From: Phoronis australis
Taxonomy: Eukaryota > Animalia > Phoronida
Direction of reading: 5' to 3'
NCBI GenBank assembly: GCA_002633005.1
Contig: NMRA01000040.1
Span: forward strand, 141,362-205,361
Length of the DNA: 64,000 nucleotides
The translations under genes and the position numbers were made by a program. Positions 1,884 to 58,812 of the stretch are shown piece by piece (position 1 is the stretch's first letter; each line of letters starts with the position of its first letter). Below the pieces are notes generated by a model, which worked only from the letters and a program-made list of their open reading frames with translations, ran no database searches and had not been told where the DNA came from.

Positions 1884-3487
1884 ACAAGAGCAACGCGGTG
1901 CATTGAAAAGCGCCCACGACTGCACCGCAAACAGTGTGTTTCTACGAGTGTCTATTTGCATCGCAAAAAATGGCCACTAGATGGCACAGAATACATTGAA
2001 CCAATCCAGAAATGGGAAGGTGTCGTTGTCGTCTCTCAAATTACTATTTGCCTAATTTAATAAAAATCTATCAAAGAACTCCATAGATACAAATAAAGCA
2101 AAGGTAAAAAAGACAAATTGGTATTAGGAGTCACAGTTGAACCCGTCTGAAAATGAATGTCAGTCATGCCATTGTCAGTAGAAACACATCTGCCAATTTT
2201 CATAATGATCCTCTGTGCAGTTAGGCAGATACAGAAGCAGAAGACAAGTAACTAAAATGGTCACTAGTTGGTGCAGAATAGGTCAAATCCATCACAAAAA
2301 GGAAACATGGTTGAAAAATTTCACGGAAAAGTATCAAGGAATTCTTAAGTTTCAAAGGCAACGTAAAAAAAATAAAATTGCAGCAAGAGAGCCAAGCTGT
2401 AGCTGGACTGGTCTAAAACTCGCAGTCATCTGTTGCCATCTCCATAGGAACACATCAGCTAAATTTCACGAAGATCTTGCAAAGGGTGAAGGAGATAAAG
2501 CTGTGGATGCAAAATAAAATTGCCACAAGGGAGCACAGCAGTCGTCAGCTCAGTTCAAATGCCATCATTGTCCGTCAACTTCATATAAATACACTTGCCA
2601 AATATAATAAAGACCCTCCAGAGAAATTAGGAAATCAGGAGATACAGCGAGACAAAAAGCTACCGCTAGGAGGCACCACAGTAGCGTGAGTCCTTCAAAA
2701 TTCACATAAAGCTGTCCTCTTCACAGTAGAAAGTAACATAAATGCCAATTTTCAAAATGATTGGAGTGGTTTGGTTGATAGAAGGGCGGGCACCAAAAAC
2801 AGACTAGAAAACAATAAAAAATATATACTACATGGCGAAAAACACGTCACATCCATTCGAAAATAAAAACAAAATACAGAACTGCCACTAAGAGGCGCCA
2901 CAGTAGTCGAAGATGTTGGAAAATCATCGTCAATCTTCCTCTTCATAGTAAGAACATACATGCCAATTTTCACAATCATGCTTAGAGCGGTTTGTTTGAT
3001 AGAGGGGTGGACGTCAAAACAGTTAAAATGGCCACTAGGTGGCGCAAACTACGTCAAATCCATTCGAAAACAGGAGGATGCCAAATTTTATGAAAATACG
3101 TTAAGGACCTTTGAAGATACAGAGGTAAACATAAAAAACTAAAATTGTCACTAGGGGGCACACCGGTAGTGAACATATGTCAATCGGTTTTGGAGACAGA
3201 GCAGTGGACGCCGGACGGACGCACGCCGCCCGGATGGACGGACGCCGTCAGGACGGACGGACACAGATGACGGCATAATGCGTCCACATATTAATATTTG
3301 GGCGCATAATAATTGCCACTAGGGGCACACCAGTAATCCCATGTGTTGGAAAATTTGCTCATGCCATCCCATCCATGAAAGGAATGTACGTGGAAAACTT
3401 TACTAACATCCGTCAAAGGTTTTGGAGATAGAGTAGTTGACATCGGACGGACAGGGATGACAGCATAATGCGCCCACATATAATATG
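1884..3487 (+). mobile_element. HINE/Helentron-like (pearl/DINE-1-type) non-autonomous element, family A copy 1, with duplicated 3' end
   Basis: ACAAGAGCAACGCGG start, subterminal GCGCCCAC, ~150-bp tandem core units, GGAC microsatellite ~3205-3265, terminal palindrome ATGCGTCCACATA..TATTTGGGCGCAT. Confidence 0.8.
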
Positions 3488-4185
3488 CTTACTCTACAGT
3501 CTGGCTAAGCAATCTAAGCCTTTAATGATGAAAATGTATTCACGTATTTCTGCTTTTTCAAGTTAAATATTTAGGTACACAAGTAAACCAATTCTTAAAA
3601 CTTCGCATCTGTCAACTTCAATTTTGAAGGTCACAGGTCACAAGGGCAACTGTCTAAATTTCAGTGCCCATTTTCGAGTAAGCCTAACCGCCAATTTCTG
3701 GTTTAAGCGTCTATCTCTGGTAAGATGCCCACCTACGGATTTCATGGATGGCCAGCTTATAAGCACTCTGGTGGCGCTATCTAGAACGTTAAATGAATTA
3801 CCTCTAAAACAATGCTATCATGGTAGTGGCACAAAATGAACTGGTATCAGTGCTCGTGCCATTTGATGCCACGTTCGCACTAGTCCTAATTCAATTTATA
3901 TACGCCGTAGAGGACAATGTGATAATGAAATCAACAGAGACTAAAATGTGTTGCTAAACATTGTCAATTTTTGGCCACAAAAACAATATCAACAAAATAA
4001 CATCACATGGGATGATTTAAGTTTATTCAGCGGCATTAAAATTATTCAGTATGCGCAACAACAAAACATACCATTAGACCTAATTCCTTTTTAATATTGC
4101 AATGTTCAAGACAGAGATTAAGTCTCAGAAGCTCATCGAATTTTGAAGTGAAAGAAAGAACTTGTACTCTTCCCAAACTACTTAC

Positions 4186-4302
4186 CTGGTGCTCCTGGCT
4201 CACCATCCAACCCCGGTATACCTGGATCACCTCTGTCACCCTGACGGCCGGGTAATCCATCCTCACCACGGGGTCCAGTACCTTGCCCATCCCCTGGCCA
4301 AC
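4186..4302 (-). CDS. COL4A1: Exon 15 (117 nt): (G)WPGDGQGTGPRGEDGLPGRQGDRGDPGIPGLDGEPGAP
   Basis: ttttaaag acceptor, gtaagt donor, phase 1/1. Confidence 0.93.
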
Positions 4303-10281: not shown

Positions 10282-11893
10282 CTGAAAACAGAACACGCAT
10301 ACACACATTGTGAAAATAATAGGTTTCACATAACAATATATGCTATAATGTTAATACCACATTGTGCACAACTCAAGACACTTTCTACACGAAGTAGTAA
10401 GGAGTACAATGCAGAATGCTGGTATGTCCCCACTGTGCGCAACGCAAACGGCTAAAATATAGGTGGTGCTAATTTCTCATTTATTTCTGCCTAAGTCGGA
10501 TCCATTCAAAACTTAACATCAAGAACATTATGTCAAATTTCATGAAGATCCCCCGAAGAGCTTAGCAAATATTAAAGCTGGCGCAATGATAATTTGTCTT
10601 TACGGTTAGCCACAATGTCATTGATGTCAGTCCAAAAATCAACACCAGCCTTGCTTTCCTCAATATAACTTGGTATATAGGTGCAGACGTGGCACAAAAA
10701 AAAATCAGTCCTAGAGGATTTCAAATTTGCAAATTTCGTAAAAATTGACCTTGTTGCGGAAAAATAGGCCCGAGAATCTTGCCACCATCCTGATATCACG
10801 AGCCGAGAGAAACGGCTTTGAAGTTAAGCGGTCATCGATTGCCATTTGAGATCAAATTTCGTTCAGAATGCGTGGTCATTATGTTCCAATTTTTGTTGAA
10901 GTACTAGAAATAAAGCTGATATTTACTTCATGTTCAGAAAATGTGACATACCCGTTTGTTTACAGCGTAATTTTAATCATTTTTTCGAACTTGTGAAGCA
11001 TGACAGATGACCAAAACAAATATGGTTGTCACGTGGGCGGAGCTTAGCGTTGATCTATTGTCTGCTGTACTGGTGTGCCGACCACACATTAAAACCATGT
11101 GTTGATTGTTTATACGATTCATATGAACTCTCCACTCAGTGCAGTAAAAGACTCTCTAACTATATTACACAGACCTATTTGTTAGTATTCCAATATCATC
11201 AACCAATATATGTGTTATATCAAATCGCCGCGTTACTGTCTACATAACAATACTGGCGACGAGGATAAAGAACTACTTTTATAGTAATGGTTCAACATTT
11301 TTACGTGCCTGTACCTAATGGACTTTGGGATAAGGAAATATCACTTTCTGCGCAAATAGCGTCGCCTGGGTGAGATTCTCAAGTTATCAAAGTATCTCAT
11401 CTTGCTTTCCTCTAAAATCGTATAATATCATGAGTTTTAATTCAGGGATACGTTCGAATCTATGCTCTAGAAAAATTTTGTTATGTTGAACACTGGGTCC
11501 TTTCTGTAATTTTTTGGGTTACAGCCAGTGGCAAGTTAAAAAATCCCCTGGGTTTGACAGCCTAGTTTCTCCACGGCGCGTTCCCAGCACAGAAGCATGG
11601 TTTATCTGCAAAGACTCTACTCTGACGGCATGTAGTTGTCCATGTGTCGCGTGCACGGCGTGTCTTCACAGCGCGTGCATGCACTCTCACCGAATCGTGC
11701 AACACCACCCATGTCGACGCTCAGCGTCCTCTCGCAAGACACCTCACCTTACAGACTTCTCTTGTACACGCACAATTTCTGCACTGACTCCTCAAGCTGA
11801 GTGCAGTGATGGCTTCGGTAGGACTTGGCGTACTCAACTTAATTTTTTTGCAGATAGACAAACAGGCTCAGGCTCGTAACAGGAACTAGTTAA

Positions 11894-12226: not shown

Positions 12227-13021
12227 TAACCATTTCACTACCAACTTTCACATGGTCAAAAATAGAATTATTTTATTCTTGGTCTTGCTACCACCAATAT
12301 CAGCTGGTACAGCACTCTCGATTGCGCAATGTTTGTTGACAGGGTTAGATTAGAGCTAGTGTCCTTGTATAAGCTCCGCCCCAGTTGTCAATCACTGAGG
12401 TAGCGAGCACTCAAGCCATATGACTTACTGAGGCTTGGTCAAATATAGCTAAAAAAACAACTTTGGATTTTCAGAATGATTTTATTTTTCTTCAGTATGC
12501 TGTGCATCAAGAATTAAAGATTAGGATGACATAAAAATGTAAAAAACAAGTCAAAATTATTTTTTTTGTGTATCCACCTACTTTAAGGTGGTTTGGTAGA
12601 TTGAACAGGAGACGCCAAAAAATTCACAAAATTAATATTAATCGTCAGGTAAGGTGCTGCTGTCTCCTTAATAGAAACCTATGCTCCAATTTTCAAAAAA
12701 AAAAACAAGTCTATGACGAAACTTCTTTTCTAAAATTGCCACCAAGGGACACAGCGGTAGTCCAATCAATCCAAACGCCACTGACTTCCGCCGTCAACTT
12801 CATAGAAACATACCAGCCAGCTTTTTCTGATGCCCATACAGAGACAATGGCAATTAGCACACAATGTGAGCACATGAAAAACCTTCCTCACTGTTTAGTA
12901 TAATGAACTTGGTGATGTTTAAACACATGGGGTGCTTTCAAGGCAAAATACCTTATTGACTCAAAATTGTCCAAACCTGAAAAGACTGAAATTTCTAATG
13001 GGGTCACTTTCAGTTAGTTAC

Positions 13022-21922: not shown

Positions 21923-24779
21923 CTAAAAACAGAAAATGATATTCTGGTTAATGAAAAGGTTTGCTGACATGGAGATCCCAGGAAATGTAACAAGCTAGGT
22001 TTTGCATCTTTCAGAATCCCAACATTCCACTTATTCCAGTGTTACATAACAAGACTGCAAATGTGGTGGGACTGACAGGATTATAAACAGTTTGTTTGAA
22101 AAATGTATAACAAAGACAGATCTTATCTCCTAGGAGAATTATGTTTGAACCTGCAAACCCACACAAATTTTGGAACATCAATCAGTTGAAGAATGAATAT
22201 ACACAACTCTAGCCACCAGAAATACTTAGTGGGTGGTCACAGTTAGCAGTTAACATGTCACGCCACCAGATGGGGCAAGTAGCCATCTGCCTTGGCCACT
22301 AATAAGTGACTCATTTGGCTACCACCTTGATCCAAATGTTAACTAAGGTAAGTACATGTTTGGAGCGAAGTGATCCTTTTTATAATTCAAAATAATCACC
22401 ACTGACAAGATGACTTAGATGAACTACAATGTATTTTATAATAGCAATTATTGTTAAACCATGCAACAGTATTTTGCAGCAAAGCAGCACAAAACCTGTT
22501 TTTGGCTAGAGTTTTGTTGAAAAGATAGTAATTCTTGAAAATGTGTTCATGTTTAATTCCTTTAATTGCTTTCAACAAGGACAGCACCAGATCTTAAACA
22601 GAGTTAAGCTGCCATGAAATATAAAAAAGATGATTTGATTCTATAACGTTAAAGCTGCTATTCGCCTAAAAAAGAAAATGAAGTAGGTATTTCACTGTAA
22701 TAAAATCAACCACATAATATTCCTTATCGTGATAGAATTCCAAATCTGTTACCAACCAGAACATTGAAACCATCAATAGCAACACAAGAATTTTTTTCAC
22801 TGGGGTTGGATGGCAACCCAGAGTTCAACAATGGCCCATGCACCCATTGCTGGCACCTTGCATTGGTAACAGAAATAAAACCTCACAATGGTAAGGAGTA
22901 TAATGCAGTAAGGAGTATAATACAGGAAGAAGCATAATGCGACTATTTTAGGAGAGCAAAAGGCCTAATTCAATTTTTGTTTTTAGCCTGCTAAATAGGG
23001 CAAAATGCATCTTAATATAAACGAGCCACTATTTGTTATCACCTGCGAACAATTAATGGATTACAGATAGCTTGTTTTTCCTCAGGTCTATTAGTACAGT
23101 CTATCACCTTCTACTAGTCTCATGAAGTTTTGATAATTAAGGTGCCACAGAGATGACTTAATGACGATAGCCAGACAGAAGGAGTCATAATAATCCAGGT
23201 GTTTAAATAGATTTACTGCCTCTTCAGGAAACTTAAGCACTATGAGATAACCAGGCTTGTCAATAGCAGGTGTACATAAATATTTGTAAACTTATGCAGA
23301 TCATGTAAAATCATGTGCAACACAACCAGTGTCACCAAGTGGTACAGTGAAAGTATGCCACAAATACATGTTAAAGTTCGTCGAAACGTGACAAATTAGT
23401 TCAAATGCGTCAATTTTAATACAGCATACAGCCCCAAATGAATCAGATTAGACGCAACGTAATGACATTTATGAAAAGGATTGATAAAAATAAGCATAGC
23501 TACCATAACATCTTTTAATTCATATTCTGTGCATGCCAAAATCTTAATTATCAAATTTGTTTGCAGCTACTCAAAAGCTTGAAAAGAAATTTTCTATAAT
23601 AATTGTGAATATGACTTATTTGTTGAAAGGTGGTCCCCTGTTATCCAAGGTGTGTTTTGTGATGTTGAGTGCGTGTACGTGTGTTCTACTTTCTTTTTCT
23701 GTGAAATAATTTGTTGAAATAAATATGTATAAAAAAATTCTAATATTTTTTTAGTCAGAACATACCTCACAAGACTAACTGTTATTTATAATTCGAATTG
23801 CTGAAAATTTTCCAATGCAGTTACTTCACAGTTTGCATGTAAAACAATCCCAATGTTGATTGACACTCAGCATACTTTACGTGATGTATAACTACAAAAC
23901 CAGCGTTTACACAATATAATGATTCTCTTGATTCCACCTTGTGCAAGTATGAATAAACAGTGGCACCCACCACATAAATCGGTGGTCGCATAGAAAATGG
24001 CCACCAGTTAACACCGAATACCATATAAATGTCCTAATTGAAAAGGTGCTATCGCCTCCATGATAAAAACTTATTTGCCAAATTTTATGATAAACCATCA
24101 AGAACTCCAAAGAAATACTAAAACAACCACCAAAAATTCCCACTAGGTGACATATTGCTAGTTAGATGGGTTGGCAACTTGTCAACTTGTCATTGTCTAT
24201 CGTCAGCTTCATGGGAACACATCTGCCAAATATTATTAAGTTTTGCAACACTCAGAGGAAATGCCAATATGCATATATAAAATGAAAAATATTCATTATC
24301 CATCATCTTGTGACTAAAATTGAAGAGATTTTGTCATAAAAATATTTTCACCACTTTACAAAAAACGCAAATTAATAAAAGACAGATGACACTTTGGAAG
24401 TTATTTCTCAAACAGCCAACATTAAAAACGCAAACCTCACTTTGTGAATTCAGATCTAAACCGAGGATTTTATGCACAAAAAACTGTGTACCATAAACAA
24501 GTGCCCATGGGAAAATCAAGCAGCAGACAGTCTACCTGGTAAAAGCCCCAAATAGAAGTGAAATGACAGTACAATATGGAGTTTAAGTCAATGATTTTGC
24601 AACAAATTTTGGTTGCAAGATTAGCTTTATCAAAATCTGCACATTTTGTGAGCTTCAAACTGGAATTAGTAAAATTATCCATAAAGATTTGTTCATGGAG
24701 TTATTGAGTGTACTTAGGAACGATCACTCGCACTATAAGGAACCAAACAAAGGCATGCCACCTGAAAGCTTGAACCAAA

Positions 24780-26503
24780 ACAAGAGCAACGCGGAGCGTT
24801 GAAATGCGCGCACGAATGCATCGCAAATGGTGTGCTTTTAGGGGGTTTTGTTTGTATCATCGAAATAACCACTTCATGATGCAAAATACATCGAATCTGT
24901 CTGAAAACCAGAAAATGTTGTTGTTTCTTTAAAAGAAAGCCATTTACCAAATTTCATTAAAATTCATCAAGGAACTTCAGAGAAACAGAGGAAAATGAAA
25001 AAAATGAAATTGCCACTAGGGGGGCACAGTGCTCGTCGGTTCCGTCTAAAAGTTGTCGTCTTCTCTTGTTCACTTCATATAAGTACACATGCTAAAATTT
25101 AATAAAGATCCTGTAGATGGCTTAGGAGACACAGGTATGGGTGCAAAAAAAAGCAAAACCGCCACTAGGAGGCACCACAGTACTCGAAGTAATCGGAAAC
25201 TCATTGTAAACCATCCCCTTCATAGAAAGAACATACATGACAACTTTCACAATCATCCTTAGAGTGGTTTGGTTGACAGAGGGAATGACGTCAACAAAAC
25301 AAGACTCAAAAACAACAAAAATGGCCACTAGGTGGCGCAAGCTATGAATCCATCCAAAAACAGGAGGATAGCGTCATCTCACTAATAAATGTCTATGTAC
25401 CAAATTTTATCGAAATCTGTTGAGGACCCTTGAAGATACAGAGGTAAACGTAAAAAAACAAAACTGCCACTAGGGGGCACACCGGTACACCAATCTGTCC
25501 GAAAGTTGTCGTCCTCCGTTGTCACCTTCATATAAATATATTTGCTAAATCTAATAAAGATCCTATCGAACGTTTAGGAGATACAGCCATGGGCGCAAAA
25601 ACAAACAAAACTGCCACTAGGAGGCGCCACAGTAGTCTAAGTCGTTGGAAAATCATCGTCAACAGTCTTCCTCATAGTAAGAACATACATGCCAATTTTC
25701 ACAATCATCAGTGGTTTGGTCGTTAGAGGAGTGGACGCCAAAAAAAAACGACTCGAAAACAGTAAAAATGGCCACTAGATGGTGCAAAATGCCTCGAATC
25801 CATCCGAAAACAAGAGGATAGCGTCAACTTATTAATAGATGCCTATGTAATAAATGCAGGGCTTAGAATGACCAATGACAAAAAACGCGGAAATCATGCC
25901 CGATTACCAGCTCGCCCGTCCACTCCCAACCCACACATTTTTGGCTGCAGAGCGGTAGTATTTGTCACAGCGCTTAACAATAACACGAGACGCCATTGAA
26001 AATCTCCCACCACGCTGTCCCAGATGCCCCGGCAATGTTGACAATTTACGTTCCTCCGAAACATAAAGAGCAACTTCCGCTTTTCGAGGTGAACGTCGTC
26101 TGCAATGCCGCGGTAAGAAAGGAATTTGCCGCGGAAATTTTATATCAAATCCGATTTTTTTACGCGGAAATATTATAAAAAAAGCGGAAAGCACATTTGA
26201 AAAAAGCGGAAATCCGCATTTCCGCGGAAAATTCCAAGCCCTGTAAATGTCCCGAAAATCAGTTGAGAACCTTTGAAGATACAGAGGCAAATGTAAAAAA
26301 TTATATAATTGCCACTAGGGTGCACAGTGGCATTAGGGTCGGTCCGAAACTTGTCACCCTCTGTCCTCAATCCCATAGGAACACACTTGCCAAATTTCAA
26401 TAAGATCCTGCAAGGGGTTTAGGAGATACAGCCGCGGATGCCGGACACCCAGACAGATAAGACGGCAATATGCGACCACATATAATATGTGGGCGCATAA
26501 TAA
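24780..26503 (+). mobile_element. HINE/Helentron-like element, family A copy 2 (contains nested MITE)
   Basis: Same ACAAGAGCAACGCGG start, tandem core units, terminal palindrome ATGCGACCACATATAATATGTGGGCGCAT. Confidence 0.82.
25857..26243. mobile_element. hAT-like MITE with 6-bp TSD, copy 2, nested in the HINE-like element
   Basis: CAGGGCTTAGAAT..ATTCCAAGCCCTG; TAAATG duplicated; highly similar to 19150-19621 apart from indels. Confidence 0.9.
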
Positions 26504-32424: not shown

Positions 32425-32456
32425 AGAAACAAAACAAAACAAAACAAAACAAAATA
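32425..32456 (+). repeat. (AAAAC)n microsatellite
   Basis: Seen directly. Confidence 0.85.
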
Positions 32457-32458
32457 AA

Positions 32459-34610: not shown

Positions 34611-35440
34611 AATAATGATCATATTACTAACAAAGATCCAGTAAGAGTAACAGGAACAGAGTAATTATCAGGCTCACAGACCTCCTGCTGCGTTAAGGGC
34701 TCTCAATGCCCCCGTTTTTGGGCACAAAAATTCCCCATTCAATGATTAAAAGTCCCCTTCAGTTTACTTTATAATTTTTAACTCACCCTGATGGCACTGA
34801 TGACAACTGAGAGGTGGGGTTGGGTGATAACAAAGCAAAATTCCTCTCCCAGAAGCCACAGGGGTCTTTCCCTTAGGTGTGTGAGAACTTTCAAATGACT
34901 AAGAAAAACCGTATTGTCAAAAGCAGATCAGCACTGGCTGAACTCAATCAGGAAAGGCTAGGCTTTTAATTTTGCAGTAGAACATATAACATGAACCTAT
35001 AACAAAAACAATACTTTTTCATATCAAAAGGTTTTCAAAGACCCAATAACAGTTGGGTATATATGAGATATATACCGTAAGCACAATATCTTTCTGCAAA
35101 AAAACATGGCCGCAGGTTTTATTTACCACGAGCAGCGGGGGTGCACGCCCACGGTTGGTACGAAAAAACATTAAAGTGAAACAGCAACTTCAATTTGACC
35201 CAAAAACTTTTCTACACTTTCCTATATTTTAACAATCGTTATTAGTGTTTTGGAAATCATTTTTGACAATGCGCAGCGAGCGTGAATTAATTGTCTTGTG
35301 TTACAATATATTAAAAAACAACCGTTTTGAAAAGAAAGGTGTTGTTGTCATACATAATGTTACAGTTTTCCGATGCAAATAAACATCAAATGCACAGTGG
35401 GATAGTTCTAAGAGAGCTCATTGAATAAAATGCAACTTAC

Positions 35441-35524
35441 CGCTGCAGACACCAGATCAACCAGACACAGCGCCAGTAAAGCTAAGCACACAACTTGCCG
35501 CCAGTGGACGGCTGATTGAGCCAT
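35441..35524 (-). CDS. COL4A1: Exon 1 coding part (84 nt): signal peptide MAQSAVHWRQVVCLALLALCLVDLVSAA
   Basis: AACATGG Kozak context, hydrophobic core, small residues at the cleavage site, gtaagt phase-0 donor that fits exon 2. Confidence 0.92.
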
Positions 35525-36867
35525 GTTTTGCAAGAGTTCTCAGGCAAGTCGCCTGCTCAGTGGTCCAAGCCGAGGGGATGTGCTTTCCACTAGCTTCCTC
35601 TCTCTCTTCCGAGATTCGTCTTCCTTGCCGATGAACCTCAGTCGCTATCTGTTAAGACCAACCTCACAGCTCGGACATCTTGAACTCCGGCACACATGTA
35701 AACTCATTCACAAGTGAACTTGAGAAGCTTCATAGAACCTCATCACAACTCCGCCGGACTACTTTCTGTGGGACAGCCTACGCTAAACCGCGGTAAAAAT
35801 AATTAAAACAAAATTTCAGCGTGCCTCAAGTTACGTTATGTGGATCTTAAATGACACTGAAAAACATACTTTCTACTTCGGAACTTGATATTTAATGAAA
35901 TCACTAAGCAAAATTGGTGACTAACAGCACTTGTTTCGCGAGCGCAGGAAGGAAATTCCACCAGCTGGACCGTCTGGAAGATTGAAACCACAAATCAGCT
36001 CTCGGTGTCATTCATATTATAACACCTCCCCAATAAGGTACCGGTGCAAATTAACAAGTCAATAGGGGCTTGGGAGAATTCAAACGCAAATTTTGCTCAC
36101 TTTTCACACACAGAAACAATAACCTGTCATTTTCTCATGTGGGCTCAGCCTTGAACACATAAAGGACTTAGGAAAGTGTGGTATCCTCCCATGACCATGT
36201 CATCAATGGAAAATTAACTTGACTTTATCTTAGCAAAAATTTCCTTTAAATAACAGTACCTTTTAGTCTTATTGCGTATTTTAGTGTAGAAATTTATTAA
36301 TTGTTGTACTAAACAGGCAAGATTTCAACTTTCAAATGCAACTCGGCCATTATTAGCGAAGTTAAATTTGTTAATGAAAGAAGTGAGTTCATAAGACATA
36401 TGTCCACAGACGAACTTGGGTTTTTACTGAATTATCCACTAAAACTTTATTCTGACACAATACATATATTTCTAACTAAAATTATCAAACCAACGCAACA
36501 AAGGGGGTGTTTTTGAATGCTACCTGTGAGTTAGACTTTGCATTTAGCACTGCTGCAAGCTGGATCAACTTTTCTTTTCTCCCAAAGTCGTAGCAGACGG
36601 AAAGCTTTGAAGTAAATGACAAGATCGCTCCGCCTACTGCAGTCGCGAGCAACTGAGACTCCAGATTCCTAGAACGTTCTGAAATCAGTGGCTGTTCGCC
36701 TGTCTGAAATTTACTGTGTCCTACACTGAGGTATTGCCTGGTGTATGTAGAACACAGCAGATAGAAAGACAGTGAAAAGGACGTCACAGATTGGCAGAAG
36801 GTCCCTAAGTGTGAACTGGGACGAATTCCTTGCCACGATCTGACCACTGCGGAGAAGCACGAGGGGA
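35525..36867. promoter_or_regulatory. Shared intergenic region: both 5' UTRs and a putative bidirectional promoter
   Basis: Lies between the divergent start codons, with CpG-richer flanks. Candidate TATAAT on the minus strand ~36016-36021, CCAAT ~36030, GC-box-like CTCCGCC ~36628, Inr-like TCAGT ~36686. Individual motifs are weak evidence. Confidence 0.7.
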
Positions 36868-36924
36868 ATGAAAACGCTCAAACTTTCACCAACCTTTCCA
36901 TTTAGGCGGAAAACACTCACAGAC

Positions 36925-36935
36925 ATGCGGTCATG
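36925..36935 (+). CDS. COL4A2: Probable collagen IV alpha2-type gene, first coding exon (ATG CGG TCA TG, phase 2); in-frame upstream ATG at 36868
   Basis: gtaagc donor at 36936; splices in frame to 37120. Identity inferred from head-to-head position and phase-2 split signal peptide. Confidence 0.7.
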
Positions 36936-37119
36936 GTAAGCGTATTTTCTACGTTAAGTGGACTTTATATTTTACAATGTTAAATGTACTTTCGCGCCAC
37001 GATCAAAATTATCGGCTGATCACGGACACCGCTCCGACGGGGCCGACGTGCACTGAATCGCGGTAAAGACAACGCGGCGTATCGTAGTATATACTAGTGA
37101 TTATTATTTTTTATTACAG

Positions 37120-37174
37120 GCTCTTTGTCCTGGTGGTGCTGTGTTTAACTTGCCTGCAGTTAGTGAAAGCTGAT
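37120..37174 (+). CDS. COL4A2: Probable collagen IV alpha2-type gene, second coding exon (55 nt): (W)LFVLVVLCLTCLQLVKAD
   Basis: Strong T-rich ttacag acceptor and gtaagt donor; completes signal peptide MRSWLFVLVVLCLTCLQLVKA|D. No collagenous sequence of this gene is in the window. Confidence 0.75.
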
Positions 37175-39449
37175 GTAAGTTTATTTTGCTTTGCCCATAC
37201 ATAAGTTAGTTTGCCAAGGTTCCGGTGTTCATAAAACACCGTTGGCCTGAAGACCAAGTCTCCGATCCGGGCCTCTGTCGGAATCGTGATGTGGCGGCCA
37301 CATTGATGTTGAAGTAAAATTGTGTAAACCATCTAACCGACTAAAAATTCACTAAATGGAAAAAATAAATTCAGCATAAAACAATTAATTCAGTCATCCT
37401 GTAGTCAAAAACCGATTCATTTTCACCTGTTTTATATTACACTCTGACAGTTTTAACTCCCGAGTTGGAAGTAATTAAATTCTCACATTCCTCACTTGTT
37501 CACGTCCTGGTAGCAGTCTATAAACATAAAATCAAGGGGTATTTTTGTCTGATTAAGTTCATGTCTTTTTAATTTCATTTCTACTGGTATCTGGTTATTT
37601 TTTCTGTATGTTGTGTGTTTGTAAGTATTGACATCAAAATCATGTATTAAGTACTAATTTTAGACGACGCAGAATCAAATCAGCACCTTTAATTAATATC
37701 AACGAATAACTGCATTAGGTATTTTTTATTGTTTCTATTTTTCATTTAATTGAATTTTGGTGATAAAATATTAGGAAAAAGTTTCTGTTATTGGTAGATG
37801 GGGTGTCCCAGGGACCTGACACCACGACAAAAATTGCCGTCGTGGCGTTTCCTTCAAAAACTGTCGTTTCCCCTACCCCTGGTGTTGTGATAGATCCGCC
37901 AGTGCTTATAAATTATGGCAAATCTCAACATTTTAAGTTCAAAATGCCAGGGCTGTAAACATGTTATAATTGAGATTATTGAAATATTTTGACTAAGTTG
38001 ACAGAAATAGCACCGTGTAGTGGTTACTTTCAAATTAAAACCTGTTAGTATTTCCTTTGAAATTTAAATTGTATTTATCGCACGTGTAGCAAATTCTTTT
38101 GAAATCTTTAAAGTGGTATTAAGGCCATTTTGAAGTTTTTTAATATGGTGCAGTAGAATAACAAATTTAACAATCTTTAAGCCACAGACCAAGCGTAGTT
38201 CACTAAAGCTACCGTAGCCTTGGTGGAAATATTTTGCTTTTTAATGTAATGCTGTATTGGTTTTTAAAGTATCACAGTCAATTTTAAGGCCAGCAATGAT
38301 GCACTGAAGTTAATAGCTTTGTCCCGAACTATAATACACCAAAATCCATTGTGTTTTTATAGTTATGTTACAAATCGCCAGTACTTGCCGTTGTCTGCCA
38401 GACATTTGCTGAAATAAGACCAGTGACTTTCCCCAAGTAAAGTACTGTGCCATTTATTGGGAGCAATTTAGCTTCACATTTAGCAGAGCATTATACTGAG
38501 AACTTGGGAATATCGTCACAGTAGTTTTTAACTCTTTTTATGCAAGCATGTTACTACTAAAATTGTTCAGTTGCAAAGCCACCAAAGTTTGGTGCTGGGA
38601 CATGGAGTTGCAGTAAGAACATGAAAAAATTGAATGGTGAAAGAAGTACATATTTGTGAATGTACTAACTGCTTGTTCTTTGTTTATTTGCCATTTTGAA
38701 AATGTGCTGCTGACAATAGGCACATGAATGAGGTACCTTGATGCAAAGCTTAGAAGAACTTCAGGGTCGTTGTTATTACTATGACTTCTTTTCTTTCTAA
38801 AGCCGTTGGTTGCCGTAGAAGAAGAAGACTCACATTCTGTGATAATCACATTTCTTACAGTAATTCAAGTCAACTGCAGTATATTAGTGACCTTCAGAGT
38901 CCCATGCCTTGTAACATTTAATTCAGTTTAGAGGTGCCTTGGGTTAACAGTGGGGGTATATGTCTGTTTGGGTATGGTTTGGTATGATGTATGGTTGAAT
39001 GGACTCAAATGGCTGATTCAGAAGCTTTCTACTGGGGACATCCTGAAATTGGACTCTGTGATTGTGCAATACATTATTGGCTGGATTTGGAAAGTAGGCG
39101 TGTCCTCATTATGAACTACCTGGGAGAAACTAAGGGTCTGTTTTTTTGAAAAAAGTATGAACGGTTCTACACTTATTTAGCATACTTATACGGCAGACAA
39201 GTAATATTTCGTTAAAAAATTAGTCAATATTAGCTTGCTTTTCATGGTGGAGGTGTCATAAAACAGTATTTGATAACACTACCATCGTTTGCAGCAAGGT
39301 AAACAGCTCTGGTAAAATAAAAAAATATATTTGTTTCAATTAAGTGAGGGAATTGCTGTAGTGTTATGAAAAAGTTTTGTGAAAAGTTGATATTGGTTCT
39401 CCTTATTGTGATTTCCTTTGAGGGGGCGAGGCTGTGCTCTGCAGAATCC

Positions 39450-48600: not shown

Positions 48601-51600
48601 ATGACAAAGTAGTTATGTTGCGGAATTGTGCCAGAAGTAAACACAGTGACTGTTGAAATGGTCTTATTGCCATGCAGCATTGTGGGTAAATTTTGAAGAA
48701 TGAGAGAAGGTGCTGGGGTATTTCAAAAAATGACTGTTGTCATGCAATAGGACAAATAAATGCTGTTAATTTGACACCCTTTGTGGAAACTATCAGGGAG
48801 ATCCATACAAGTACAGTGCCAAAAGTACTGTTTCAAATAAAACAACCCGGAATTCTCAGACATGGTGGCTTAAGGGTGGAATCCAAACTCATTGTCAGAA
48901 TATGGACTTACCTCGTGACTGGGAATAAAGGGAAATGCCCTACCCCCACATAATAGTAGTTCTAACCACACATTTTTGCTGTTAAAAAATAAGCCGTAAA
49001 CGGTCTTTTGTCAGATTACTTTTGTCTAGTTCGAAACAACTTAGCCTATAATCTTATTGGAAACTCCCCCGAATGACAACGAACTCTCTGTGATCTTTTT
49101 ACCTGACGCAGCTTGAATTAAGGGATATATTTCGTAATAGAACACCATTGATTTTTTTAACCTCTTGTTCACCACAGGAGTCCATGTTCAAAATGTTTCA
49201 ACGGAAGTTTTCATTTAGTTCATTTAGTGTAGAAATTGCCACCAACAGCTGGCCAGACGACTTCACAGTTTCACACTGTGTCCTCTGTGTTAGTTTAAAA
49301 GAAATACCCATTGTGAAGATGATGTTGTTTGGAGGTTTTTTATCAGGTGTGGTTTTCATTGGTGAACAGTGAGGTTACTTCCTAACAAATGTAGTTCCGG
49401 GGAATATTTTCCCAAAGCATTTTGGCCACAACATGCCAGCCTAACACAGAACTTTCTTTTGTGATATGTTTCTCTATCAGTTATGGTTTAAAGCTCTTGT
49501 GAGATAGAATGTTCGTCATTTCTGTCTTTCCTATTGATGTATGTGTTTGGTGCAATAGTCTATCCAAGACATTCGAAGTACCTATGATATCAGTGCAAGT
49601 TCTTGTTAAATGCAGTGGTTATGTAGGTGTACATTAGCTTCATGAAAAGAATATTTTGTGATACGGTAAAATCTCACCAATTTGGGAAACGACAGACAGT
49701 GAAATTCTATTTTATAATTTTTCCATGAAAGACGTGTAGTACCAAATTAACGATTTTCTGTGCTCACATTTTTTACCAAAGCTACCGTTAGACAGCGTTT
49801 TGAAAAATGGCATCTGTGGCAATTGTTTTTTTTTCTGAAATTGGAGTGATTTTATCGTACACGTATGTGGGCGTACTTTAGGGTCCGGTTTCGTAATGTA
49901 AGATACTCTTGAATGAAACCATAAGATCACGTGTTTTACTTTTTATGCACCTACAAAAAATTGTGGTGGCATGTAATCAGGTCGGGCATAACCTTTGCTA
50001 GTTTGTTGATCTTTTCTAAACTGCTTGGCTTAGCATTCATTATATGGTTGAGATGTGCCGGAACCGCTTGATTTTCAGACTTATTTGAATACCCTCTTAG
50101 ACATTTAAGTTTTTGACAGGAAACTTCCTGTCTGTCAGTTGCTGGCGAAATGACTTTAGTTTTGCCAAAATTTGACTCAGAGGTATATGGTAGAAATGTA
50201 CCTGCAGCAGTCAAATTAACCAACAAATGAGACTATCCTGGCACCACTTGTTGACCATTTTACTTTTTTAACTATGAACTTGTTGTCTTTCAAGTTTCAA
50301 TGACTTGACGAACTTCACCAAAATATTACTCAGAAACATGTGGTTGGAATGTGCCAGCACAGGTTGATTTTCAGATGAATTTATCTACCGTGGCTTCTAC
50401 TTATTGGCCGTTTCAATTTTCAAACAGGAAATTCCTTGTGTGCCAGTTTTTGGCTAAACAACTACAGACTTTCTGCTTACATGTTGTATGAAATTTTACT
50501 CAGTTATTATCTGTAGTTTAGCAGATATTTGTCAATGAAATCCCGATATTGTCAATGAAATCCTGAATAACCTTAAGAACTATTTCAACTCTGTGCCCAA
50601 CCTGGAGTACTGCAAATGTTCTTCAATTTTCAGAACACTAAACATGGCTGACACGCGCCATTGAATTTGTTTCAATTTTCTTGGTACAAAAACACTGGCA
50701 TGATAAAGCAGAAGCTTTGTTAATTTTTGCTGACAATGTGATCTATCTTTGAAAAGTGGGGAAAATGCTATTCCGTCAGTTTTTGTACAACATTTTTAAA
50801 AAGATTACTGGATCACAATGTTTATTTAATGTGGAAATTTCCCTCACTACTGTTGGTGGTCTGTTTGTTAGGGTCGCCTGAAATCTTGACTTCTTCATGA
50901 AGTCCTATTCCTTATCTTGCTTATAACTCAACCTTGCAGCTTTGAATGCCAACTATCAATGCAATGGCTATTCTGAGGGACTGTTTTTTGTATATTAGAT
51001 TAGGTTGGCACAAATACTGGCTTTAAACAGCCAAATGGTAAATTCTAGAAGTAGGTGTAAATCACATGTGGCAAAGACCTAAACAATTCCAGCTGCCATT
51101 AGGGGTATGTTTATTTTAAATGTGGAACACTAATTACGCATTTGTCTGTGTTGCAAGGTGAGGTCAGTTAAGGTTTTCATTGGGTCATATGCCAGCTGAT
51201 CCAGTTCGCTATTGGTCAAGCCTATTGCCCACATTCTGAGTTAGAAACGAATTCGTAACTTACTGTTCTCTATGGCTGAAACTGTTGGTCTTCCGACTCT
51301 ACTTTTTTACCTAAAAACTCGTGTGTACTGGCTGAGTGAAATAGAGCATGTTTGAACCAATGTCAACATTATGAAGTCAATTACAAAGTCTCATACAGAA
51401 AGTCAAGAGTGTGTAGATGGGACTTTATTTAGAACACCTTTGAGACATTTTGTGGTGTGCATAAATACTTGTTTGCCTTTAAATAAGCTTCGTAACTGCT
51501 GAAACGATGTTAAACCGTGAAAGAAAACTGCATGAAACAGTTTTGCAAATTGACACCTTTGTTAAGTTTCTGTTTTATTTTAGGCTGAGTTACCTAATTC

Positions 51601-52865
51601 TTTCATGATTTCTATATCTGTGTGGCTGTCTAAGGCTTGTCTACAAACCAACTAGGCATTTGTGTCAGATCAGTGTTTGTTTTGAAATCATCCCTTGTCT
51701 GTGGATCCAAAGGCATTGACCTCCAGCAGGGTTAAAAAGTCTTTAGTTACTTATGTACACCACAGGGGGGTTCTCATCCACATGAAGTGTAGGAGGTGCT
51801 CCTGTGCTGCAATATCTAAACCAATTCTAATTCTCATGATATTCGGATTTCCTCGCCTAAGGTGATACCTAGGAGGACCACTCCCCATGACGGCATGTCA
51901 CAACCAAGTGTGTTTTAGGGGTGCCCCAGGAAATGTGCCTGTCAAGGTCTATGTACAGTCCATTCCATAGGATACCACAAAATATAAGCCATTAATTGAT
52001 TCATTATGAATGAAGAGAATTTCTATTCATTGCGCATGTTAGGCTCAGTGTAGATTCAGCTTGTATGCAGGTTGTTGGGGTCTTGTAATGTGGCCACCCC
52101 AGAATGTGTTTGGTTGACACAAGACAACTGGATTTTTATAGATACGAATGTACTGTAAAAAACAGTATTTACTGTACTTCTCAATTCAGGCCGGAATTTT
52201 TACCTTTGTCAGTCCAAAATATTGAGCTATTTCATTGATCGAAACTTATCTATGAGCTAATTAAATGTTGCAAATTTTGACCATTTGCATCTCTGAAAAC
52301 AATCAACGGCTGAGCCAGAGAGTCGCCCTGGTCACCCATGACCTTTGAAATTGAAATACACAGACCCAGAGTTCAAAAGATTTGCTGTATCCATAAAGCA
52401 AGCTGCCCAGAGTTTCTAACCAACTCGTGTATTCAAGTAGCTAATTACGCAATTTGAAATAGAAAATTCACATTGAAATAATACCGGCCAAAATTCTAGG
52501 ACTGGCTTGTCATGCAAGTGTCATCAAAGTCGTCGAAGGTGCAAACTAGATCTTAGCACAAACTCCCTCCCTTTGTTTGTGCTGTTCAAACTCCAATGGT
52601 GGAAAACATCCTGTCAAAAACCTTTTGCAAGACATTGTATGCTTAGGCCAAATGAGCGTGAATGATGCAGTTCAAATTTCGCAAGAAAAAAATTGTGTCT
52701 AATAGCCACAAAATGTTGCATGTAGTGCACCTGCTACAGTACTTTGACTTTGGATGTGAACAGGGTCGGGATTTGGCTATTAAAACTGTGAGAAAAGATT
52801 GTTCTTTTGATAGAATAAATTTGTTGTGTTGTATTGATGAGAGGCTGTGGTTGACTTTAGATCTG

Positions 52866-53265
52866 GGCCCGGTCTTTAATCTTTGTACTCGAAACGAACT
52901 CGAAACTATTTTTGGCAATTTCTCTGCTCCTTTTGTGCGAACTTAAGATAATTGGTTATCAGACTGTGCTTGAATACATTATAGTTTATGCATAGGAGTT
53001 TCTAGTTCAAGTTTGCCCTTGAAGACCCTTATATTCGTGCTACAAACTCGAGTAAAAACTCGAAATTTCTAGTTCAAACTCGAACTTATTGCTTTAATAT
53101 CGGGTTTACAAACTGTGAACTAAGGGCAATAAATTATCTACTAAGTTATTGTGTACTCGAGCATAGAATAATAGACATTTATCTTGAGTTTGCCCAAAAG
53201 TAGAGTAGAAAATGCCAAACCTAATTTCGAGTTCCATTTCGAGTAAAAAGATTGGAGACCGGGCC
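52866..53265. mobile_element. PIF/Harbinger-like MITE with CWG target, copy 1
   Basis: TIRs GGCCCGGTCTTTAATCTT / AAGATTGGAGACCGGGCC; CTG TSD; internal ACTCGAA motifs. Confidence 0.9.
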
Positions 53266-54442
53266 CTGGTAAGTGTAAATTTGAACAAGGTGGCCATTCC
53301 TAATACACTGCAAAAGTCACAAACAACACAATGTCCCTGGCCACCAAAGCCACTGACGACGACTGGTACTCCCATCGACTTGAAATTGCAAATGTGTGGA
53401 AAAAATAGAAATACGCTTAAATGTGTCCTGTCTGACATGGATCATAGTAGGCCGTTTACTCAATTTTCATATGGAAAATTCCAGGTAGTATGGCCAAATT
53501 TCTTCAGGAACTAGAATTTAATCAAGAAGCCAGTGGACCACCGTTTCAAAAACCCAGTGAAACCACTGCCTTTATTGTTTTCCTGGCGTAATCTCCACTT
53601 GTAATAATTTCTGAGCTTGGGAAGAACTGACTGTGTTATTCAATTAGACTTGGCTGTACATGTCAGTTTGGTTTGCCCTCGTAGATCCGTTAAGCAGCGA
53701 GCAATGCACTACTAGTTCTCCCTTAGAACGAAGTTAAGAAAATTTGAGGTATCGATTTCATAATTCATGCCCAGATTTTTGTTGTTGTTTACGGATCACA
53801 ATAGGACTGCTTACCCCTTTCCTGGTGGCCTTCATTTCCTGCCTTTGTCTCCATCATTGCTGTATGCTCAGAGTGACCTTCAAGTCATGGTTCATTGGTA
53901 CGACATAATAGTTCAAAAATATCTTTTCACAGGTTACAAAAAGCTGTTGGTTGCTCCCTAATAGTGGCCTGAATCAAAAATTTTTGTGGAGGTGTTTGGC
54001 AGCGAAAGTGTTAGCACAACATAAAATCAAACTGCAGCTAAATCAGTCTACTCACAATGGCCAACAAAGCTATGATCCTATTTCCTATAAAGTACATTTC
54101 TCAATAAAGACTTGTTTTGTTCACTTCTTTTTCAGTTATGTGTTGCTTATTTTTGGTTTTCACAAAAACACACTTTTCCAATCATTGTGGCTGCACAGCT
54201 GCTTCGGCTTTCTGGAGGATGTCAAACCGCTGCTTGTCGTGGGCGTGAATTACCACCACATTGGAGTCAATGTCCAGAGACAACAGAGTCATTGAATGTC
54301 AGGTTCACAGACATCCCCCCCACGAAAACAACAATTTCTCAGCAAGAGGTCTCAACCTAGCAGTGTTTATGCAGGAGCTTTTACCTAAGGCAACCACTGC
54401 CAGCAAAAAAGCAGGAAAGCCAATCTTATGTTTATTCTGATG

Positions 54443-55380
54443 TAGGCAGTGACCATCGCCTCTGTTGGCCCGACCAGAGGTGATGCAGCTCCTATAGGCG
54501 CTCCATACGCCGGAAGCTTTTTGGCGAATTATGCCTCGCATTGGCTAAAGCATGAAAGTCACATTGTTATAAATATCTTTTGCGCATACAGGGACACCTT
54601 AGGAGGTTGTCGGTGTGTTGAATTCCTTCCAACTCGAACAAATACTTCCGTTATCGAACTTTTTGTTCGAGCAGTCACTCGTTCAGTTCCCAAAACTGTG
54701 AACTCACCATTTTTATGCTGCGCACGCTCCAATTTTTACCGCGCTCGCTTGGTGATGTGGCTTCATGACCTCAATCTTTAAATAGGCCAAAGGTGAGCCA
54801 TTGCAGTCTTGTCAGTCAAATGTTCGTTTCAAAAATGCCACCACTACTTGTCTTTAATTGGCGTTACTTAGAACTGATTGTATTTCAATGAGTTATTGTT
54901 TGCATTTGATAAAGATAAATGCTGTTGATATGACATTTAATATTTGACATTTTACTGTTTAACAACACGGCAAATGCATGGCTGGTTCCCGGAAGCACGT
55001 ACGCAGAGGACGGGGACTTCAGCTTTCAAAGTTCGCCGGTAGGACCGCAACTTCTGACCTTCGGCCTGGTTAAAAGAATGAGGTCATATCTCTTGGCGTG
55101 CGCCGAGTGAAAATGGTGGGTTCACGATTTTGGAAACTGAAATGGGGACTTCTCGAAGAAAAAGTTTGATAGCGGGAGTATTTGTTCGAATTGGAAGGAA
55201 TTAAACACATCGACAACCTCCTAAGGTGTTCCTCTATGCGCAAAAGATATTTATAACAACGTGACTTTGATGTTTTAGTCGGTGCGAGGCATAATTCGCC
55301 GAAATGCTTCCGGTGTATGGAGCGCCTATAGGAGCTGCATCGCCTCTGGTCGGGCCAACAGGGGCGATGGTCATTGCCTA
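54443..55380. mobile_element. Foldback non-autonomous DNA transposon with ~280-bp TIRs and 9-bp TSD (MULE-like; TAG termini could also fit hATm)
   Basis: TAGGCAGTGACCATCGCC../..GGCGATGGTCATTGCCTA; inverted match extends ~54443-54725 vs ~55095-55380; flanks ATTCTGATG / ATTCTTATG. Confidence 0.88.
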
Positions 55381-56018
55381 ATTCTTATGATGATCTGATG
55401 CGGCTAAGGGCATAACCATCCCACCATTTTTGATAGTCAGTGGAAGATAAATGTGACATTGTTTTAATGTAGCATTGTGCTTGGTCAAAGCCAAAGTTCA
55501 GCATTTGACCTTAGACTTGAATGCAGACTCAAAATTTTTGTACTCAAAACCGAGCTCACTGCAAGTGGGGTGTATTCCTCCGATGCTGTGTTGCATTTGA
55601 TTATGAATTCAGAGACTGGATAGATGGACCAGGACTTTAGTTCAAGTAAATGATCAAATTGCATACAGGGGTCATATTTTCTTGATGTTAAACATATATG
55701 ATAGCAATTAGTCATGGTGATATCTCACTAAGACTTGCATATGTTGCATTTTTTGCAAGAATATTGGTTTAAAGAGTGCAGGCTAGGTCTTAGATTTGAG
55801 TGATACATCTTGGACAGGCTTCAAGAAACTTCTGGAGCTCATTATCTCATGAGCTTAAGCAGTCTTAATTCATATTCATGCCTTCGGTCAGTGAGGCCTT
55901 GGTATGCATAACTAATGACCTTTATTCCTTAGACAAACTAACAGGAGAACTGTTTTCAGGTTTATTATATTTCTCTTAGGCAACATCAATACTATGGTTC
56001 AGTGACTTCAAAGACCAG

Positions 56019-56408
56019 GGCCCGGTCTCTAATCTTTGTACTCGAAACGAACTCGAAACTATTTTTGGCAATTTCTCTACTCCTTTTGTGCAAACTTAAG
56101 ATAATTGGTTATCAGACTGTGCTCGAATACATTATAGTTTATGCATAGGAGTTTCTAGTTCAAGTTTGTCCTTGAAGACCCTTATATTCGTGCTACAAAC
56201 TCGAGTAAAAACTCGAAATTTCGAGTTCAAACTCGAACTTAATGCTTTAATATTGGGTTTACAAACTGTGAACTAAGGGCAATAAATTATCTACTGTACT
56301 CGAGCATAGAATAATAGACACTTATCTTGAGTTCGCCCAAAAGTAGAGTGGAAAATGCCAAACCTAATTTCGAGTTCCATTTCGAGTAACAAGATTGGAG
56401 ACCGGGCC
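56019..56408. mobile_element. PIF/Harbinger-like MITE with CWG target, copy 2
   Basis: Near-identical to 52866-53265; CAG TSD. Confidence 0.9.
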
Positions 56409-57816
56409 CAGCTGCCAAATACATGTGCATGTGATCAAAGGTTGGGACATTATTGCAGATGCCTCCTCAGAGGCTATTGGACATGTATCTACTGAGGTTA
56501 AACCTTCTGTAATTTTAAGAGTGCGCTCGCATTATTGGCTAATCAAATTTTTATTGAAGCACCGTAATTGCTTAATTCGGGCCAAGTGGCGTATTGAAAT
56601 TGTGATGGCAAATGCGTCTTTTTTTCTTGTCATTCATTCAAATTCTAACACAATTTTGGGCAAAGTCACCACAAATTTTAAAGCGAATTATGGGTGAATT
56701 ATTGTCTGACTTTGTAGCGATGTTGCCAAACCCAATGTAAAGTTGCACTGGCATGTTGCTAGTTGCCAAACTAAGACCTGTGTTTCGTTTAACTGAAACG
56801 CAGTTAGCATTGAGATCCATCAGTAGTTAGCTGAAAAAACTGCACCTAAACATGCTTCCCAAACAACGAATGGGAGAAAGGAGCAGGAGAAATAAACTTG
56901 GTTGTGTAAATTGATCGGTAGATTTAAGTCCCTGTTTGTCAATTGACCCTTAGAATGATTCCTGCTTGTGTTTTGGAGAGCACTGTAGCTGTGGTCTTTG
57001 AAATAATGTTGTTACAATTCTGTTGTAAAATTTGGGATGGATCCTGTTGTTTGAGGATTTTCACGTTTCTTAACAAGCCTTGATGAATGACAGGTGTCAA
57101 GTATTAAATTCTAAATCAGATAATTTGAAAACAGTTGGAGAGTGCTGACTGAGTCACAAGGTATCATTTCTTGTAACAGTGTTCTTCTGAGGAAAACATT
57201 AGACAGGCAACAGCACAAGAGTCAGGGGTTGAGTATTGCCAGAAAAGGTGGTAACAGCGGCACACCTAATTCGATAAAGATAAAAAAATATCGACAACAA
57301 GTGCTACCAGATAAGGTCACTTGGTACACCTACTCATGGTCTGACCACAGCTGCCTGGCCACAATAGGGGTGACCTTTTTCTACCTTGTCCTGAAGTTCA
57401 CCATTTTGACCACACCAGGACCTGCTGATAAACACGAGGAAGACCTAATGTAAACATGGGCTGGTATCTTTATGGGTGGTTATGCAAGACTGGCTACTGG
57501 ACTTTTTTTGCACATGCTCCATTTGTTCCTTCTGTGATTACTCCACATGTGTGGCACATACTTGGAATGAAGCATTACCATTTGTTACCCTCTTGACAAT
57601 CCAGTGAGACTTGGAGAAAGACATTAGAGGGTGCAAAGTACAGTTTGTGGGGGGGAACATTACCCACTCTGTCTAAGGCATTGCAGTTTACCTTTCCTTA
57701 AATTACTCTCACTGGATAGTATGCATGCATTTAGACACCTGTGACTACCATATATGCACAATTTTGGAGTACAATTAAGGAGCAAATTTAATAGGTTTTG
57801 ATGATGGTTGAGTTAT

Positions 57817-58812
57817 TTTTATGCGCCCACATATTTATATGTGGACGCATTATGCTGTCATCTCCGTCCGTCCGTTCGGCGTCCGCTGCTCTGACTATCT
57901 CCAAAACCCTTTGACATATGTTCATGAAATTTGGCACATATGTTCCAATGATGAATGGGACGGCATGAGCAAACTTTCGGACGGATCCGATTACCGGTGT
58001 GCCCCCTAGTGGCAATTTTAGTTTTTTTACGATTTCCTTTGTATCTTCAAAAGTCTTTAACGGATTTTCATGAAATTTAATATGTAGGCACCTATTAGTG
58101 AGATGACGCTATCCTTCCGTTTTCGGATGGATTCGATGTAGTTGGCACCACCTAGTGGCCATGTTTACTGTTTTCGAGTCTGTTTTTTGCGTCCACCCCC
58201 TATCAACCAAACCGCTCAAAGGAGGATTGTGAAAATTGGCATGTTTGTGTTAACTATAAAGAGGATGGTTGACGATGATTTTCCGACGATTTCGACTACT
58301 GTGGCGCCTCCTAGTGGCAGTTTTGTTTTTGTTGCGTCTATGGCTGTATCTCCTAAACCGTTCGCAGGATCTTTACTTAATTTAGGAAGTGTATTTATAT
58401 GATGTTGACAATGGATGACAACGACTTTCGGACATATCTGACTACTGCTGTGCCCCCTCGTGACAATTTTATTTTTTTACGTTTAACCCAGTGTCTTCAA
58501 AGGCGGATCCAACGGACACTGTGCCCACTAGTGGCAATTTCATTTTATTCTGTTTTCCTTTGTTTCTCTGAAGTTCCTTGACAGATTTTTATGAAATATG
58601 GCATGTTCCTGTATTTGTATGGTTTTTGCGCTATCTAGTGGCTATTTTCATGATACAAATAAATAACCCTAAAAGCACACCATTTGCATTGCATTCGTGG
58701 GCGCATTTCAACGCTCCGCGTTGCTCTTGTTATGAAACAAATAATCAACCCTAGAAGCACTCTGTTTATGGTGCATTCGTGGGCGCATTTCAACGCTCCA
58801 CGTTGCTCTTGT
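57817..58812 (-). mobile_element. HINE/Helentron-like element, family A copy 3 (inverted; 5' ~82 bp tandemly duplicated)
   Basis: Palindrome ATGCGCCCACATATTTATATGTGGACGCAT at the left, GTCC microsatellite, core units, GTTGCTCTTGT ending at both 58730 and 58812. Confidence 0.82.

Follow-up and report, generated by a model that had tools for sequence, protein, structure and literature searches.

One of the closest described counterparts of the element family analyzed here, which we identified in a 64,000-nt stretch of the phoronid Phoronis australis (GenBank assembly GCA_002633005.1, contig NMRA01000040.1, positions 141,362 to 205,361 of the forward strand; hereafter the window, to the full length of which all motif counts and copy coordinates refer), is Cg_HINE of the Pacific oyster, a HINE/DINE-1-like element (PMC7492417, PMC4067079). 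The two share subterminal inverted repeats (subTIRs), a 5' inverted repeat, a GTCY microsatellite and a 3' palindrome, as well as central tandem repeats of 140-180 bp in fixed orientation, T-rich targets and thousands of copies. In the Phoronis element, by contrast, the central repeats have diverged into types that follow a higher-order A-B-C pattern, and they contain a core matching the published consensus for CTCF (CCASYAGRKGGCRS, as quoted in PMC6746451), whereas the oyster arrays, when searched, were without this core, and CTCF is not mentioned in the accessible text of PMC7492417.

Mobile elements that multiply binding sites for a host factor are also known. In Caenorhabditis, Helitron-borne clusters of heat shock elements provide a likeness in which a rolling-circle transposon spreads dense sites for one host factor, and the authors suggested a selfish origin with later host use (PMC6927752); there, chromatin immunoprecipitation sequencing and natural deletions showed binding and gene effects and the factor is an activator, whereas here the CTCF sites are predicted from sequence alone. 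CTCF motifs have been multiplied by hAT-Tip100 repeat 274 and others in lamprey (PMC5504073), by non-autonomous DNA transposons in zebrafish (PMC7182764) and by short interspersed nuclear elements in mammals. The accounts of the lamprey and zebrafish systems mention neither rolling-circle elements nor tandem site arrays (the words "tandem" and "Helitron" have 0 occurrences in the accessible text of both papers), and occupancy was measured there, whereas our observations concern motifs only. The mouse DXPas34 minisatellite (PMC3149622) has a CTCF site per monomer and a possible mobile-element origin, but it is a single, undispersed locus with 30-34-bp monomers. Finally, Helitron tandem repeats of C. 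elegans have been proposed as transcription-shaped chromatin barriers (Helitron-derived PATC insulators; bioRxiv 10.64898/2026.08.08.743475), although the feature in question is a 10-bp periodicity of mechanical nature, which according to the authors is not a motif bound by a protein. HINE central repeats, transposon-borne CTCF sites, Helitron-borne factor-site clusters and CTCF minisatellites are thus separately known, while a literature search (mostly at title/abstract level, with few subscription papers) found no paper that combines them and none describing CTCF motifs in the central repeats of Helentrons or HINEs.

Three regions of the window are diverged copies of one element, which by its anatomy is a HINE, i.e., a non-autonomous Helentron. 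Its 25 units fall into five types, namely a first unit (F), a repeating A-B-C trimer of ~450 bp and a terminal unit (T), the central units being 140-165 bp long. On balance we favour the reading that this is a very high-copy HINE in whose repeats a CTCF-consensus motif was retained as the remaining unit sequence diverged, probably through host CTCF binding that aided the spread of the element. The copies and the structural parts of copy 3 are as follows (the collagen genes are described below):

1884..3490, canonical orientation minus, motifs on the plus strand: HINE copy 1, 11 units
24779..26503, minus: HINE copy 2, 8 units, split by a nested miniature inverted-repeat transposable element (MITE) and lying within the first intron (13.5 kb) of the left collagen gene
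57819..58813, plus, motifs on the minus strand: HINE copy 3, 6 units
57819..57852, plus: 5' subTIR and inverted partner of copy 3, hairpin z -4.7
57862..57895, plus: GTCC-type microsatellite adjoining the 5' hairpin of copy 3 (the same tract in copy 1 at 3209-3262)
58697..58731, plus: 3' subTIR, 6-bp-stem palindrome and terminus of copy 3, the subTIR being a 10-bp perfect match to the 5' one

The motif, scored by its IUPAC (International Union of Pure and Applied Chemistry) consensus and not by a weight matrix, is far more frequent than expected by chance. At no more than one mismatch, the window holds 17 matches, 14 of them within the element (3, 6 and 5 in copies 1, 2 and 3, respectively), compared with a mean of 0.27 and a maximum of 2 in 100 shuffles. 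Because the units are related copies, we also shuffled individual units (20 full-length ones), a kind of control that the earlier note on this DNA had proposed: 23 of 24,000 shuffled units contained a match at the same threshold vs. 14 of the 25 real units, five of which are exact. The sites cited in that note are present within 1-3 bases and are co-oriented within each copy, and a motif-free profile together with alignment added four decayed units (at ~2118, 2379, 2829 and 24869). Its description of a motif in each core unit holds for the 14 units just counted, the other 11 having at least two mismatches or an indel in the core. Of the 18 spacings between listed sites, 11 measure 140-168 bp, the rest being altered by deletions, decayed units or the nested insertion. 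Individual cores and clusters are as follows:

1974..1987, plus: exact CTCF-consensus core, unit type F
3032..3045, plus: exact CTCF-consensus core, type C
25162..25785, plus: run of five cores (25162, 25325, 25467, 25614 and 25772) of types B-C-A-B-C at 0-1 mismatch, the best preserved cluster
57999..58641, minus: six copy 3 cores (58641, 58534, 58463, 58317, 58158 and 58012), five of them at 0-1 mismatch

With the elements masked, the remaining window still shows 3 matches at one mismatch and 11 at two, compared with 0.22 and 3.3 for 500 permuted patterns (P 0.008 and 0.002, respectively); this excess outside the elements, as expected, fits a genome using CTCF. Single CTCF-like sites lie outside the elements at 6802, 22263 and 44788-44801, which is above chance. 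Within the elements, the 20 bases upstream of the motif appear by eye as an A-tract, and the upstream second motif of vertebrate two-part sites is not apparent on the same inspection. A C occupies core position 14 in 23 of 25 units; a 3' terminal cytosine, to which this position may correspond, is reported as typical of invertebrate CTCF sites (bioRxiv 10.64898/2026.10.19.759930).

Conservation of the core was compared between and within types. The type consensuses are mutually only 47-71% identical overall; nevertheless, the 14 core columns are 87% identical between the five types vs. 56% elsewhere, the core ranks 2 of 133 windows, and 11 of the 14 core columns are identical in all five. The variable columns (8, 9 and 13) are all among the six degenerate positions of the published consensus (P 0.055). 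Within types, core departures amount to 33/266 (12.4%) vs. 398/2190 (18.2%) elsewhere (p 0.021, or 0.047 without CpG columns), and the core window ranks 16 of 133 for constraint; the same test on 23 units had given p 0.002, which overstated the constraint and weakened to 0.021 once two decayed units were added. The expectation that motif columns would be better kept than the rest of the unit is therefore borne out between types, and much less so within them, where a second box downstream is as well kept. The most likely interpretation of these patterns is that the motif is retained in the replicating element lineage, with weak or no host constraint after insertion.

The structural assignment rests on a layout which, read opposite to the motif strand, consists of a T-run, the 5' subTIR with its inverted partner, the GTCC microsatellite, the central repeats, the 3' subTIR, a 6-bp palindrome and a short terminus. 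This is the layout described for HINEs, for which subTIRs of ~11-13 bp are given (PMC4067079, PMC7492417), and a GTCY microsatellite and central tandem repeats are likewise found here. Pairing of the subTIRs between the two ends is perfect over 10 bp in copy 3 and has one change in copies 1 and 2, and the 5' subTIR hairpin has z values of -4.7, -3.4 and -1.8 in copies 3, 2 and 1, respectively. In copy 2, the 3' palindrome is predicted to fold into a 6-bp stem with a 3-nt loop; its letters recur in copy 3, but the lowest-energy fold there differs, and in copy 1 it is altered. Local rearrangements include a duplicate of the 5' end (last unit, microsatellite and hairpin) of copy 1 (~3148-3313 and 3316-3490) and a tandem duplication of the 3' end of copy 3 with an 82-bp period (58650-58815). 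As to coding capacity, none of four frames spanning the repeat units matched a Pfam family, and the single Pfam hit of a fifth frame, which lies mostly in the nested MITE, fell under its cut-off. A protein-coding repeat was rejected on this Pfam test, and a retrozyme or other known RNA repeat is unsupported, with 0 Rfam matches in the window.

Older traces of the family are also present, since the profile built without the motif picked up four more remnants, one weak, in other parts of the window, from which the motif has been lost:

10490..10668, motif strand plus: old remnant of units (core-free profile, E 9e-8 for the first part)
12649..12822, motif strand plus: old remnant with a 2-mismatch core at 12739
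23992..24240, motif strand plus: old remnant, two units long; the core at 24140 has 2 mismatches
50222..50421, motif strand minus: weak remnant (profile E 0.013 and 0.15)

Beyond the window, alignment of reads and contigs to copy 3 at 80% likeness indicates a very large family. A total of 33,712 contigs matched in run X1 and 26,266 in X2, and summed depth, which is not a copy number and was taken for its order of magnitude only, is ~1,000,000 over the copy 3 element vs. ~50 in its flanks. The family boundaries at 57819 and 58731 were set by diverging contigs: 302 and 317 contigs exit at 58731, and 46 and 47 at 57819, into mutually unlike flanks with a T-rich consensus, so that several hundred distinct insertion flanks provide a direct lower bound. 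Family copy number is about 10^4 as an order of magnitude, consistent with three full copies in 64 kb and thus very high, and the identification of a Helentron-type element, as originally proposed, is upheld. At four of the six copy 3 core departures (58147, 58459, 58463 and 58632), the majority letter among 40 of 233 rows restores the CTCF consensus, which suggests that the family master is closer to the consensus than copy 3 is; of the remaining two departures, one is the type-B letter and one lies outside these 40 rows.

The distribution of the motif among other repeats was approached by scanning metagenomes for two exact motifs 139-169 bp apart, which yielded 47 stretches (30 of them at GC <=52%), while prokaryote genomes yielded 10 stretches in 596 billion bases. 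Judging from composition, the metagenome contigs are probably of animal origin. One locus, L005, represents a HINE complete with subTIRs of its own, and its 146-bp units bear the same motif in the same orientation; another (L036) is partial. The core-free profile of our units matches both weakly (E 0.003-0.046), both share the second box with our element, and their core departures are 4/153 vs. 155/1436, but 6 of the 11 cores were forced by the search. The scan also revealed a 38-bp minisatellite family with up to 19 units, half of each unit being CTCF core, on eight contigs (L011, L018, L020, L024, L025, L038, L040 and L045); in L025, a microsatellite and a hairpin beside the array resemble a HINE end. 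Other unrelated tandem repeats with units of 38-170 bp and one CTCF-consensus core per unit are found in L001, L002, L021, L027, L004, L010/L013, L007/L026/L039, L029, L030 and L033, the cores of L039 being in both orientations.

The oyster served as a control. Across 3.35 million characters of its HINE arrays (the paper's arrays total 4.76 Mb), six 9-mer half-motifs were hit 3 times, and six 7-mers were hit 164 times in ~3.4 million characters, only the latter search covering GGCAC-ending variants. The motif is therefore not generic to HINEs, because arrays of the same architecture and monomer length are without it. The 10 text supplements of the DINE-1 paper, from which sequence files may be missing, contained 0 of the six 7-mers in 42,774 characters.

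The copies in the window are associated with a head-to-head pair of collagen genes, which also contains the nested insertion of copy 2:

35440..37180, left gene minus and right gene plus: first exons and shared promoter of the collagen pair (spliced RNA joints 21921/35440 and 36934/37119, translations, Pfam Collagen)
25857..26243, no strand assigned: MITE unrelated to the HINE and inserted into copy 2; its terminal inverted repeats measure 8 bp, and its flanks show a 6-bp duplication

Stranded RNA places the first exons at ~35440-35703 (minus) and from ~36688 (plus), and the pair calibrates the RNA library, in which first mates are opposite to the RNA. The layout and a Cys-bearing N-terminal segment suggest type IV-like collagens. 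Protein searches with the collagen exons found no close relative, the best identities being ~62% or lower; because the collection includes many vertebrate collagens and no close match was among them, a vertebrate source is unlikely. About 1 kb separates the two starts, and the left first intron spans 13.5 kb; in the right gene, no further exon was found by a Gly-X-Y scan to 64000. The left gene harbours copies 1 and 2 in introns, and copy 3 likely lies within a long intron of the right gene, as judged from strand skew. The motif strand is antisense to the host gene in 7 of 7 copies and remnants (p 0.016; 6 of 6 without the weak remnant), and AATAAA occurs 13 times on the motif strand vs. once on the opposite one. 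Family-wide, ~0.2% of RNA records match the element at 57819-58731 at 80% likeness (28,189/12,751,647 in run X5) with strand ratios of 32:1 and 28:1 (runs X5 and X6), the motif strand again being antisense, and no discrete start or end was seen within the element. An RNA strand bias (~2- to 25-fold by position) is likewise seen in the nested, motif-free MITE, so the orientation effect is not specific to the motif. This MITE is itself a high-copy element with a partial sister copy at 19307-19624. Other repeats of the window include a third interspersed family, old and ~270 bp long, with copies 67-71% alike (1400-1672, 29301-29572 and 39446-39680), and two foldback-like elements, one a 408-bp self-complementary repeat in two copies of 94% identity (52859-53270 and 56012-56411) and the other with 285-bp inverted arms 88% alike (54443-55380).

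Retention of the core in the replicating lineage raises the question of what reads it. The core could be a cis-element of the transposon machinery, serving either as an iteron-like site bound by the Helentron Rep or, as a near-palindrome, for hairpin formation or recognition by a dimeric protein, its CTCF likeness being due to chance or to a first capture from the genome. Repeated Rep-binding sites are common in rolling-circle replicons, and selection apparently acts on the replicating element and not on inserted copies; the second box is equally kept and recurs in L005 and L036, and 4-5 of 6 mirror pairs per type make the core near-palindromic. However, mirror pairs show no compensatory changes, each type breaking at least one, and neither position 14, for which there is no mirror counterpart, nor the three bases at the centre vary among the five types, a pattern that favours an asymmetric reader such as CTCF, although a transposon protein may also be the reader. 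Oyster HINEs of the same architecture do without the motif, and unrelated 38-170-bp repeats in other records have it in different flanks; taken together, we regard a cis-element as improbable. Purely neutral carriage, in which a genomic CTCF site was captured once in the founding unit and passively multiplied, would be in keeping with the capture of host DNA by Helitron-type elements (PMC7492417), and the apparent conservation might then derive from alignment anchoring and small numbers, given that only 25 units of five types were compared, that unit boundaries had been set by the motif before alignment and that the degenerate-column test is borderline. It is an unlikely account in our judgment, considering that 11 of 14 core columns do not vary between otherwise dissimilar types and that a second HINE family, hardly alignable with ours in its other parts, has kept the motif.

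The earlier note had gone further and proposed a portable insulator cassette. If the host kept the clusters as boundaries, they would bind CTCF and insulate or loop host genes, with left and right copies facing each other across the collagen promoter. Clusters of 3-6 strong co-oriented sites, core departures below the unit average within types, the uniform orientation to the host gene and the binding of transposon-borne CTCF sites in lamprey and zebrafish (PMC5504073, PMC7182764) are all compatible with such a role; nevertheless, the modest within-type rank of the core and the weakening of its p value with decayed units, the decay of inserted copies (at least two mismatches or an indel in 11 of 25 units) and their CpG erosion, the loss of the motif from old remnants and the reported ability of invertebrate CTCF orthologues to bind DNA without forming loop-extrusion domains (preprint, bioRxiv 10.64898/2026.10.19.759930) speak against it. 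The facing arrangement follows automatically from antisense bias in a head-to-head gene pair, a bias that the motif-free MITE shares, and the near-nucleosomal spacing, which had been offered as a sign of function, is equally found in the motif-less oyster HINE repeats (138-181 bp; PMC7492417, Table 1). We therefore consider host-kept insulators a poor bet as a general explanation; such a role for some copies is possible, though so far unsupported.

Several observations also weigh against our favoured reading, that of a motif kept through host CTCF binding. Besides the near-palindrome already mentioned, these include the borderline result of the degenerate-column test when taken alone, the fixation in type B of an A at position 9 that the consensus disallows, and the behaviour of the second box, which is nearly as conserved between types (0.79) and departs less within them than the core does (10.5% vs. 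12.4%). CpG transitions (40/192 vs. a background of 80/817, i.e., twofold) give the copies no appearance of being shielded from methylation. The metagenome loci were selected by the motif and so speak for its existence in such repeats, not for its frequency, and in the unforced units of ten 38-bp arrays, fixed motif positions depart (72/624) only slightly less often than positions outside the motif (303/1872), with 68/468 at degenerate positions. Finally, CTCF is absent from non-bilaterian animals (PMC10719294), and its presence in the host is presumed here.

Under the favoured explanation, the element would be copied in trans by a Helentron Rep/helicase, and host CTCF would likely bind the motifs of young copies. 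An A-tract plus motif every ~150 bp may then create an open, nucleosome-poor array of benefit to the replicating master, e.g., through easier transposase access or delayed silencing. The nucleosome core is 147 bp, which could not fit between bound neighbours 142-163 bp apart; full CTCF occupancy would thus be expected to exclude nucleosomes, not to phase them. Inserted copies would mostly decay, being hardly constrained by the host, and would form a large reservoir of raw CTCF sites from which a few may be co-opted; the orientation bias likely reflects purging of insertions that place the AATAAA-rich motif strand in sense. A more far-reaching scenario, to which we give a rather low but real chance, is that rolling-circle transposons of several animal lineages have evolved tandem CTCF sites as cargo, and that here one family supplies ~10^5 motifs in oriented clusters, which would suffice to dominate the CTCF landscape of an invertebrate, place promoter-facing clusters in genes and rewire insulation or titrate CTCF genome-wide.

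Overall, the family bears on the role of CTCF outside vertebrates. With ~10^4 copies of graded age, each carrying several motifs in fixed orientation, it constitutes a natural experiment in which young and decayed copies, present and absent alleles, and intact and mutated cores can be compared. Absence of CTCF binding would point to another factor with a CTCF-like site. If the copies are bound, the family would be a case of a transposon that evolved arrays of sites for an architectural protein, and the upkeep of some HINE central repeats would be explained; most CTCF sites of the host could then derive from this family.

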